Source of the DNA: Paraspadella gotoi
Lineage: Eukaryota > Animalia > Chaetognatha
Direction: 5' to 3'
Length of the DNA: 64,000 bases
Assembly (NCBI GenBank): GCA_051294375.1
Contig: CM119270.1
Coordinates: 21,233,775-21,297,774 of the forward strand
Part shown: positions 12,036-14,185 of the stretch, one piece after another
Layout: each line of letters starts with the position of its first letter
Numbering within the stretch: the stretch's first letter is position 1
Translations under genes and position numbers: made by a program
The notes under the pieces: model-generated
Seen by the model: only the letters and a program-made list of their open reading frames with translations
The model's database searches: none
What the model was told of the DNA's origin: nothing

Positions 12036-14185
12036 ATGGCGTCACGACGAAAAGTTCTTTTAAAAGTCATCATCCTCGGAGACTCCGGGTAAGTTTAATT
12101 AACTCAATTTATTTTATTTAATTAATGACTTAATTTAAGCAGTATTCATTAACAATTCTTTGTGTTAGTCACAGTAGTAATTTTCCCAAAATATGAACTT
12201 GATCCTTAAGGATATGGTGGACGAAAATCCACCAACCGTTCATCAGCGGCCATTGGTGCCGGAGGCAAGTCATTCGCCTCCCAACCCAAAGGTCCGGGGT
12301 TCTAGCCCGGTGGCCGCCAAGCAGTTAAGAGGGACGGGGCGCTTAACCCCCCTGTAACATGGAGTTACAGCCTGATCCGAAGCTCAGGGGGGACTGCTTA
12401 TATTGAACGGTTCTGTCATTAACACTTATCAATAATTACTGTCTCTTCAAGGACATCTTTTTTTTTGAAACTCCGACCCTTACCCTTCCCACCCGTCGAC
12501 CGTGTGTTTAAACCTTACCCTAACTTACTTCCGTACCCCACCTCCTTTCCTCTTCCTTCAGGGTGGGTAAAACGTCTCTGATGAATCAGTACGTGAATAA
12601 GAAATTCAGTAATCAGTACAAAGCGACGATCGGAGCTGACTTTTTGACGAAAGAGGTCATGGTGGACGAGAGGCTAGTCACGATGCAGGTCGTTTGGCGG
12701 GAAAAAAATCAATACCAATTATTATTTTGATAAAAGTAAATGGTAATATCGTTTTATTAAACTAAAATTTAGCCAACTTAAAATTAAAATTAGTCTGGTG
12801 ATTTTTTGGGGGGAAAATGTCGATTTAATGGAGAAGATCATTTCACAATTTTTTAGATTAAAAGGTTTCGGAAATGATGGGACAAAATAATTTTAATCCA
12901 TATTCCATAAGTATTAATTTCAAATTTAGTTTTAATTTTTACAATTTAAATCAATAAGCATGGCATAAGTTTTAATTTTAATTCATAATTTCGACGCTAG
13001 AATTTTGAAATGTCCCGATGTTCCGTAATTTAGAAAGAAACTTCATTTTGGGACAATTTTAGTATTCATCCACTTCTCTCTCCACTCAACTAATCGAGGA
13101 CACGGCGCTATTATATCCCTTCGATGATCCCTGTCTCTTGCCCCCATCCCCAGATTTGGGACACCGCGGGTCAAGAGCGGTTCCAATCCTTGGGCGTGGC
13201 CTTTTACCGCGGCGCCGACTGCTGCGTCCTTTGCTTCGACGTCACCGTCGCCAACTCCTTCAAATCCCTCGACTCGTGGAGGGACGAGTTCCTCATCCAA
13301 GCCTCGCCTCGCGATCCGGAGAACTTCCCCTTCGTCGTCCTTGGCAACAAGATTGATTTGGACAACAGAGCCGTGAGTTCTTCTTTTTTTTAGAACGTGG
13401 CATTGTGAATGTGAAAGGCGTGAGAGTGAACAAGGATTTGGAAGAATGGGAGGGGCTGTTTGTGCATTTCCATTTACCACAGAGCTGTGAGAGTGGAAGA
13501 TGGGAACATTAAGCAGTTAAGACGAATAACAATGCTGTGAAAATATGTATAATTGTATATTCAAAATCTGGGCATAATTTTACTTTTGCCGACTGGAGTT
13601 AGGGGGTTTTTGGGTTAAAATAGTTTAAAATTAGGGTATTTAAGGTTAAATGTAGTTTTGGGATAGTGGTGGTTAGGGTTAATTGGATTTAGTTTTAAGG
13701 TAATTAGGTAAGAATTTTTTTTTAAAAATAAGTATTTTTAAATAATTTTTCAAGACGCCAAAACCCCGGTCGGCGAAAGTAAAATTTTGCCGAAAATTAT
13801 TTTAAAGCGCCCTCTTTTGTAAATATGTTTTTTATTAATCGTGAGAAAATGACATAGTCTGTCCAAAGTCGGGTAAGATAGCTTAGTTATAGAATTAGTT
13901 TAATCTTTATATTGATTTTCACAATATTATCCAGTCAGAAGCCATTTTCTTCCCCGTCAGGTTTCCGCCAAGCGAGCGACGGGCTGGTGTCAATCCAAGA
14001 GCGACATTCCCTACTTCGAGACTTCGGCCAAAGAGTCGATCAACGTGGAACAAGCCTTCCAGACGATCGCCAAGAATGCCCTGGCCAGGGAGACCGAGGT
14101 TGACCTTTATAACGATTTCCCCGATCAGATCAACTTGGGAAATCGACAGCAGGAACAGCAGAAGAAGGAGAACTGTGGATGCTGA
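12036..14185 (+). CDS. Rab7: Ras-related protein Rab-7, 207 aa; exons 12036-12088, 12562-12688, 13154-13372, 13961-14185
   Basis: Spliced translation [50 protein letters not shown]...[24 protein letters not shown]...GNKID...FETSAK...KENCGC*. All G-boxes, the Rab7 effector loop and the CxC prenylation motif are present. All three introns are GT-AG with matching phases (53+127+219+225=624 nt). Confidence 0.98.
12234..12412 (+). mobile_element. tRNA(Gly-like) head plus twister-like element (family B) in the first coding-region intron of Rab7
   Basis: tRNA-like head at 12246-12318 with a perfect 7-bp acceptor stem GCGGCCA/TGGCCGC, a CCGGG/CCCGG T-stem around GTTCTAG and a CTCCCAA anticodon-like loop. 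It is followed by a multi-hairpin domain and bracketed by the 9-bp inverted repeat AACCGTTCA/TGAACGGTT. Only one copy is in the window, so mobility is inferred. Confidence 0.6.
12319..12399 (+). ncRNA. Type-P5 twister-ribozyme-like motif (one core position divergent)
   Basis: P5 AAGCAGT/ACTGCTT; GA+CGG (12333-12337) complementary to CCG in loop 4; TAA at 12344-12346; P3 CTGTAAC/GTTACAG; P4 CCTGA/TCAGG with loop TCCGAAGC (twister U-NNN-AAGC). The GC expected for pseudoknot T2 reads CC, and P2 is only 2 bp. Confidence 0.65.
13571..13791. mobile_element. Second copy of the MITE family (opposite orientation), Rab7 intron 3
   Basis: TIRs GGCATAATTTTACTTTTGCCGAC ... GTCGGCGAAAGTAAAATTTTGCC. It shares the subterminal GGTTTTGGCGTCTT with 11836-11979 and has degenerate TTAGGG-like repeats inside. 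No clear TSD remains. Confidence 0.8.

Follow-up and report, generated by a model that had tools for sequence, protein, structure and literature searches.

Why would a short animal repeat carry a tRNA-like head ahead of a fold that resembles a self-cleaving ribozyme? The question is raised by a stretch of 64,000 nucleotides from the chaetognath Paraspadella gotoi (assembly GCA_051294375.1, contig CM119270.1; hereafter the window). A reading made from the letters alone (the sequence-only reading) had described two families of such elements here, B and A, and had explained both as a head transcribed by RNA polymerase III (Pol III) fused to a permuted, type-P5 twister ribozyme. All motifs that it listed for the two families were found in place on a check of the sequence. 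The type-P5 twister-like fold in these families is real, and we give a probability of roughly 0.55 to the reading that families A and B are solo long terminal repeats (LTRs) of Helenus-like small non-coding LTR elements, twister-using analogues of the LTR retrozymes of plants. Few natural roles have been assigned to twister ribozymes, and LTR elements with a ribozyme have been described mainly from plants and with hammerheads. Three diverged repeat families of one animal with the same non-canonical twister provide a natural covariation set.

The twister-like fold and its covariation

The strand order, the UAA, the GA, a 3-bp pseudoknot T1, a 2-bp pseudoknot T2 and a U-NNN-AA-GC loop 4 are shared with the type-P5 twister (RF02684). 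A descriptor that required the core letters, T1, T2, two P2 pairs and at least four pairs in each of P3, P4 and P5 matched family B with one deficit and the family A copy A1 with two, while the copies A2 and A3 were not matched. Shuffling gave no match with at most two deficits, neither in 3000 shuffles for each of three elements nor in 12 of the whole window. In family A, the U of the UAA lies at 15963 on the minus strand and at 19102 on the plus strand. A 4-nt register for P2 was tried and rejected, as it places a U at the cleavage-site A in both families and loses the P2 pairs.

A covariance model built from family B and A1 to A4, in which neither the pseudoknots nor the palindrome found in the P1 place were encoded as pairs, located a site that had not been listed before, 31297-31359 on the minus strand, together with its duplicate. 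Its 21.8 bits are modest when taken alone, given that bacterial loci selected by motif reach 18.8 bits with a later custom model. We accepted this site, variant C, because its pairings (T1, T2, palindrome and P5) are kept with new letters. It has the palindrome AGGCCT, a 3-nt P2 strand, a P4 with one mismatch and a P5 of 8 bp, and the junction that stands in the place of P3 has a counterpart of 5 nt in the Rfam consensus of the type-P5 twister. A second, pairing-based descriptor, written after variant C had been seen, matched family B and variant C and gave 0 matches in 300 window shuffles.

The UAA and the G of GA are present in family B, A1 to A3 and variant C, and the A of GA is altered in A2. 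T1 reads CGG:CCG in B, GGA:TCC in A and TGG:CCA in C, and is broken in the decayed A3. T2 is intact in family B at large and has a compensatory AC:GT in C; it is broken in the window copy of B, in A1 and in A3, and is a wobble in A2. When B, A1, A2, A3 and C are aligned, 8 of 14 core pairs show changes on both sides, and 87% of the 70 cells pair. None of 500 column shuffles of the B/A/C alignment reached the observed pairing, a count that is not a probability since the covariation comes from three related families, and slid registers pair in 20-53%. Without variant C, both-sided changes are seen in 6 of 17 pairs. Descriptor, shuffles, covariation and variant C together uphold the fold proposed in the sequence-only reading.

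The most unusual part of the fold is the self-complementary hexamer in the place of P1. Its self-duplexes range from -8.3 to -10.7 kcal/mol across the families; self-complementary hexamers occupy ~3-4.5% of positions by chance. In cis it can form a single pair closed by a tetraloop, whereas two copies can join through six pairs.

Table 1. Elements of families A and B, variant C and their parts in the 64-kb window.
Feature	Position	Strand	Remarks
Family B element	12213..12449	+	237 bp, TA..CA ends, likely solo LTR
Target duplication AGGA, left copy	12209..12212	+	4 bp; right copy 12450-12453
Outer helix of family B	12234..12412	+	arms ~12234-12242 and ~12404-12412; encloses head and ribozyme
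Degenerate tRNA-like head, family B	12246..12318	+	box A 12254, box B 12298, 7-bp acceptor stem
Type-P5 twister-like fold, family B	12320..12398	+	predicted cut 12344/12345; window copy without T2 G at 12350
Core, family B	GA 12333-12334; T1' 12335-12337; UAA 12344-12346; P2 12347-12349	+	
Hairpins, family B	P3 12352-12370; P4 12371-12388, L4 (loop 4) 12376-12383; P5 12320-12398	+	
Palindrome in P1 place	12338..12343	+	6-nt, self-complementary; self-duplex -8.3 kcal/mol; covaries across B, A, C
A1	15842..16120	-	TG..CA; TATA/TATA duplication; head ~15992-16064; fold 15907-15985; predicted cut 15963/15962
A2	18945..19219	+	GCCA/GCCG duplication; box A 19009, box B 19053; fold 19080-19158; predicted cut 19102/19103
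A3	28983..29283	-	decayed, head rearranged, T1 and T2 broken; fold 29053-29131
A4	40874..41205	-	A3 duplicate within 87%-identical segmental repeat
Variant C	31296-31358	-	P3 replaced by 5-nt junction; predicted cut 31333/31332; duplicate 43272-43338

Element ends, family state and the tRNA-like head

Family B as a whole was examined in public contigs of four runs (three studies) that are at least 80% alike and were aligned to positions 12150-12500. In all four runs loose contig ends accumulate before 12213 and behind 12449/12450, and outside the element the summed depth falls to single-locus level; the range 12246..12399 originally assigned to the element was thus too short. The flank consensus at these loose ends, with left ends in ATAT and right starts in NTAT (each in three of four runs), is in register for a 4-bp duplication. 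In the two runs that cover the flank, depth within the element is 7,000 to 66,000 times the flank depth, which is no direct copy number and which we read as a copy number on the order of 10^4.

The T2-forming G at position 12350 is present in 93-99.7% of depth in all four runs. For GA, palindrome, UAA, P2 and loop 4 no alternative letter reaches 5%, and one CpG of T1 is variable (0-8%). A lack of the conserved letters or of T1 covariation in the wider family had been named as part of the outcome that would speak against the fold; the other copies of family B retain GA, UAA, the loop-4 motif, T1 and the GC of T2. The frequent stem variants at 12314, 12317 and 12320 yield G-U wobbles. Two features of the window copy do not hold for the family: the CCA end, which like the long G run after P4 is specific to that copy or a minority state, and the outer A of P5 at 12319, which is found in the window copy alone, with T in 97-99% of depth.

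Family A consists of units of ~280 bp with TG..CA ends and 4-bp duplications. Its ends and majority state are based on three window loci and not four, since A4 is a duplicate of A3 in a noisy segmental repeat. The duplications are perfect in family B and in A1 (there in TA-rich DNA), have one mismatch at the last base in A2 and are imperfect in A3 and A4. With their sharp ends, TA..CA or TG..CA termini and 4-bp duplications, families A and B look like solo LTRs. These ends had been missed by the sequence-only reading, and they favor its suggestion that the ribozyme defines ends for circularization or retrotransposition. The same reading called the two families unrelated. BLASTN indeed finds no similarity between A and B, but the odd layout and the linker that they share suggest common descent. 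Family B has no terminal inverted repeat, and readings as a miniature inverted-repeat transposable element or a Helitron were discarded on this ground and for its 4-bp duplication; BLASTN of family B against annotated phages gave no match. Two internal peculiarities were also seen: A3 and A4 carry an internal duplication in the tRNA-like head (window 29140-29230 and 41030-41180), with a long G/C run near the 5′ end of A4, and family B has a 7-bp hairpin at its 5′ end (12215-12234), of which a lone 23-bp near copy lies at 59626-59648.

The minimum free energy (MFE) fold of the whole family B element is better than that of shuffles (z -3.11, 0 of 200 equally good) and includes the outer helix; for whole elements of family A, A1 is weakly better than shuffles (z -1.66) and A2 is not (z +0.86). 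The 5′ arm of the outer helix lies upstream of the presumed Pol III start, a position that would restrict the helix to circles, read-through transcripts or a second LTR.

Matches to both Pol III boxes, box A and box B, occur in family B and A2, and a match to box B in A1. The family B head has a T arm, a weak D stem and two C-C mismatches in the anticodon stem, and its MFE fold is not a cloverleaf. ARAGORN at default settings makes 0 tRNA calls, and the Rfam tRNA model has no match at E<=10. With the threshold relaxed to 80%, ARAGORN calls the family B head tRNA-Gly(CCC), but the setting is unspecific, with 26 calls in the window (165 at 70%). The tRNA-like head of the sequence-only reading thus stands as motifs and not as a tRNA gene; it is likely a tRNA-derived promoter remnant, for which a Pol III role is plausible from the motifs and is a prediction only. 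The purpose proposed for the cut, release of a tRNA-like RNA, is unlikely: a broken anticodon stem and the absence of CCA from the family speak against it, and the cut would fall 25 nt past the acceptor stem. In family B 33 bp and in family A ~56 bp precede the head, and both families finish at a fixed CA without an A-rich or simple-repeat tail; thus, they are not ordinary short interspersed nuclear elements (SINEs). No run of four T (T4) was found in family B, A1 or A2, a lack that would let Pol III continue beyond the element, and in A3 and A4 T runs stand upstream of the head.

Probable solo LTRs with a twister-like fold, and the rival explanations

Among the closest counterparts of families A and B are the Helenus TRIMs (miniature retrotransposons with terminal repeats), which have a tRNA-like promoter in the LTR and 4-bp duplications in animals (Kojima, 2024; PMC10886601). 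Helenus TRIMs and TRIMp3 have boxes A and B, of which families A and B show candidate motifs, within a short LTR, and they share with these families the TG..CA or TA..CA ends and the 4-bp duplications; solo LTRs are common, and TA..CA ends occur in wasp Helenus LTRs (PMC10886601). In contrast to families A and B, the tRNA part of Helenus lies mostly near the 3′ end of the LTR and often ahead of a T run, as judged by eye from that paper. The accessible parts of the paper report no ribozyme (the word occurs there only in a reference) and make no mention of twister. Eight short twister-core motifs, taken from the present families or the Rfam consensus, were found in no twister-like context in the accessible part of its supplement, where line breaks may hide matches. 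What was seen there, by eye only, resembles a type III hammerhead and lies just 3′ of the tRNA head in two LTRs of Synergus wasps, Helenus-2_SyJa-LTR and Helenus-2_SyUm-LTR (PMC10886601, DataS1), with a GUC triplet, a CUGAUGA core, GAAAC, complementary loops and no T4 run. Its position corresponds, again by eye, to the twister site in families A and B, for which Rfam gave no hammerhead match. Both Synergus Helenus-2 families have an interior with both PBS (primer-binding site) and PPT (polypurine tract) (PMC10886601).

The second relevant design is that of the plant LTR retrozymes, which bear a hammerhead in each LTR and 4-bp duplications and whose RNA is cut to unit length and circularized, with Gypsy enzymes as the copying machinery (Cervera et al., 2016; PMC4918200). 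Families A and B resemble them in having a self-cleaving motif (here predicted) within a non-coding LTR of ~300 bp, 4-bp duplications, solo LTRs and a proposed Gypsy partner. They differ in that the plant elements use a type III hammerhead, show no tRNA head in the accessible text and have demonstrated circles, which are here a prediction. By analogy, the present elements would join the Helenus and plant retrozyme designs, with twister as the ribozyme.

Several other systems share single traits. The SINE-like repeats of schistosomes combine a Pol III promoter with a hammerhead (PMC6765202), and in the axolotl, hammerheads whose stem is a single pair and whose tetraloop is palindromic, comparable to the palindromic loop described here, cleave better as dimers (PMC7229834). 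In contrast, schistosome and other animal non-LTR retrozymes are type I hammerhead, tandemly repeated, Penelope-linked and without LTR ends, and the accessible text of a recent account of animal retrozymes describes hammerheads only (bioRxiv 10.64898/2026.07.22.740005). In Perere-3, a long interspersed nuclear element (LINE), twister variants define 5′ ends without circles and P1 is completed by the target site (PMC8501958); it resembles the present elements as a retroelement with a twister and differs as a coding non-LTR element that bears the twister at its 5′ end. Theta ribozymes also adjoin a tRNA and cut at its 3′ end, whereas their fold is like that of hepatitis delta virus (HDV) and the phage tRNAs beside them are functional (PMC10879173). 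The literature covered (mostly open papers, without Repbase) yielded no twister in LTR elements and none behind tRNA-derived heads of animal repeats. This agrees with the earlier remark that a tRNA-twister combination is not known to have been described, while its parts have precedents (PMC6765202, PMC10886601).

Under the LTR retrozyme reading, transcription of a presumed two-LTR copy by Pol III would begin at the first head, meet no T4 run and continue into the second LTR. The twisters of both LTRs are predicted to cut this read-through transcript, which would yield circles, presumably with the help of a Gypsy partner. The palindrome in the P1 place may pair between the two LTR copies, in which case two-LTR transcripts would cut better than solo copies. 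If so, this suggests how Pol III-driven TRIMs form RNA ends. The family form of the fold is predicted to self-cleave, which we regard as probable in view of the ~1,950 natural type-P1 twisters among which imperfections of P1, P2 and P4, including deletions, were well tolerated and pseudoknot and catalytic changes were harmful (PMC11662667). Window copies in which T2 or T1 is broken are likely weak cleavers. We do not class the fold as a member of RF02684, and it likely works like one.

A good number of observations weigh against this reading. The window contains solo units only, no interior was present among the contigs listed, and no two-LTR copy, PBS or PPT was seen for families A and B, the latter two being a difference from Helenus. 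In B, A and C alike the P2 strand has 3 nt, with two pairs and a mismatch, as against four pairs in the Rfam consensus, and no window copy is free of defects in the core or P4; the short P2 and a core substitution in each copy had already been recognized in the sequence-only reading. The isolated ribozyme segments fold no better than shuffles (z -1.38, -0.19, +0.65 and -1.11). Weak z-scores of this kind are common for pseudoknotted RNAs. To the relatedness of the families, which limits the covariation statistics, is added the fact that the whole family B element varies little, so that low core variation reflects the family state and not selection. Variant C has no recognizable tRNA head, which makes the fold more general than the tRNA fusion, and its candidate LTR ends and 4-bp duplication (a 173-bp TG..CA unit at 31252-31424 with an ACTT duplication, rejected) are within chance, with 2.5 such candidates per random place.

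The Rfam models proposed as a check on the twister assignment gave no gathering-level match in family B or any family A copy. Twister-P5 matches A1 weakly (16.2 bits, E 0.41) and variant C at 14.5 bits (E 1.2), far under the gathering score of 37.6, and no twister match at all was obtained for family B or A2. All three families also depart from RF02684 in that the P1 hairpin is cut down to the 6-nt palindrome and in that they are situated in an animal dispersed repeat. Three circular permutations of twister are described, and only three (PMC10085705). The canonical P2 has four pairs, and a view relayed in the literature is that a change of its length may disrupt the active site; the closing pair of loop 4 is an essentially invariant G-C (PMC5408937), which is retained in A and C and is A-U in family B. 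Since P1 is dispensable in tested twisters (PMC5408937), dimer dependence is not required. The tolerance data cited above, in turn, concern type-P1 and not type-P5 twisters.

Some of these observations fit an explanation in which the fold derives from a twister, has lost cleavage and is kept as a structural signal, with the palindrome serving RNA dimerization or packaging in the particle of an LTR element. Palindromic dimerization loops occur in retroelements. The 3-nt P2 strand in B, A and C, the A-U closing pair in B and the low Rfam scores are in line with it, as is the location of B and A2 within introns in sense orientation, where active cutting could do harm. We consider it unlikely, as three diverged families preserve, or restore by compensation, the UAA, the G of GA and both pseudoknots, which goes beyond the needs of packaging.

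That only solo units were seen would also agree with solo LTRs left behind by an autonomous Gypsy-type element, or with non-autonomous units moved by a DNA integrase with 4-bp duplications, in which the twister would cleave for end formation without a circle, as the Perere-3 variants do when they set 5′ ends (PMC8501958). Such an origin is improbable. Family B has no terminal inverted repeat, a Pol III head suits short non-coding elements (PMC10886601), and a transcript cut inside both LTRs would lose the terminal redundancy that a linear template needs, which is the stated reason for the circles of retrozymes (PMC4918200).

Just as improbable, or slightly more so, is the explanation by a SINE-like Pol III unit in which a monomeric twister serves mainly to trim or release the tRNA-like head. 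Box motifs ahead of the fold in B, A1 and A2 (in A1, box B) and the precedents of schistosome Pol III-hammerhead repeats (PMC6765202) and of theta ribozymes beside tRNAs (PMC10879173) speak for it; against it are the sequence ahead of the head, the fixed CA end without a tail, the 4-bp duplications, a head that lacks CCA and an intact anticodon stem, and the occurrence of the fold without a recognizable head in variant C. Lastly, that hairpins in ordinary tRNA-derived repeats resemble twister by chance is very improbable: the lack of a gathering-level Rfam match and the 18.8 bits reached by motif-preselected loci would agree with it, and the absence of shuffle matches, the held-out variant C with its new compensatory letters and the T2 GC in the rest of family B contradict it.

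The LTR retrozyme reading can be extended, tentatively and with considerable doubt, to a class of Pol III-driven animal LTR retrozymes in which one ribozyme can stand in for another (twister here, hammerhead in Synergus Helenus-2). In this extension the present twister would be the first natural one to work as a dimer, through its palindromic P1 and its shortened P2; the solo copies, in their tens of thousands, would stay quiet and two-LTR transcripts would be cut and circularized. The fold raises the questions of whether a 3-nt P2 permits cleavage and whether the palindromic P1 brings dimer dependence. Standard Rfam scans missed this very abundant ribozyme-like repeat. Among 265 viral, metagenome and prokaryote loci chosen by primary motif, full T1 was present in 7 and T1 with P4 in 2, neither of which has the palindrome. 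These scans, of viral contigs (3; 120 of ~730; 9 loci), metagenomes (106) and prokaryotes (27) and not of animal genomes, yielded no true relative.

Host genes and other repeats of the window

The window is AT-rich eukaryotic sequence with introns and GA microsatellites. A Ras-family GTPase gene (Pfam PF00071), which we take to be Rab7, occupies 12036-13381, and the family B copy lies on the sense strand of its first intron (12089-12561). A2 is found on the sense strand between exons of a Na/K-ATPase beta gene (PF00287) at 17513-19430. The Rfam scan of the whole window gave low-complexity microRNA matches only.

Direct and inverted self-duplications of 83-93% identity involve 26600-32751 against 38377-44894, 1-1630 against 10285-11795, and 1633-7339. 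These long duplications carry homopolymer indels, and 198 N are present, which suggests a noisy or chimeric long-read assembly. Self-comparison of the window also revealed a degenerate tandem minisatellite at 33286-33993 and 44853-45587. Variant C is itself a decayed dispersed repeat, and further decayed relatives of it occur near 1805-1915, 5439-5553, 8046-8081, 13853-13896, 23128-23168 and 62922-62962.

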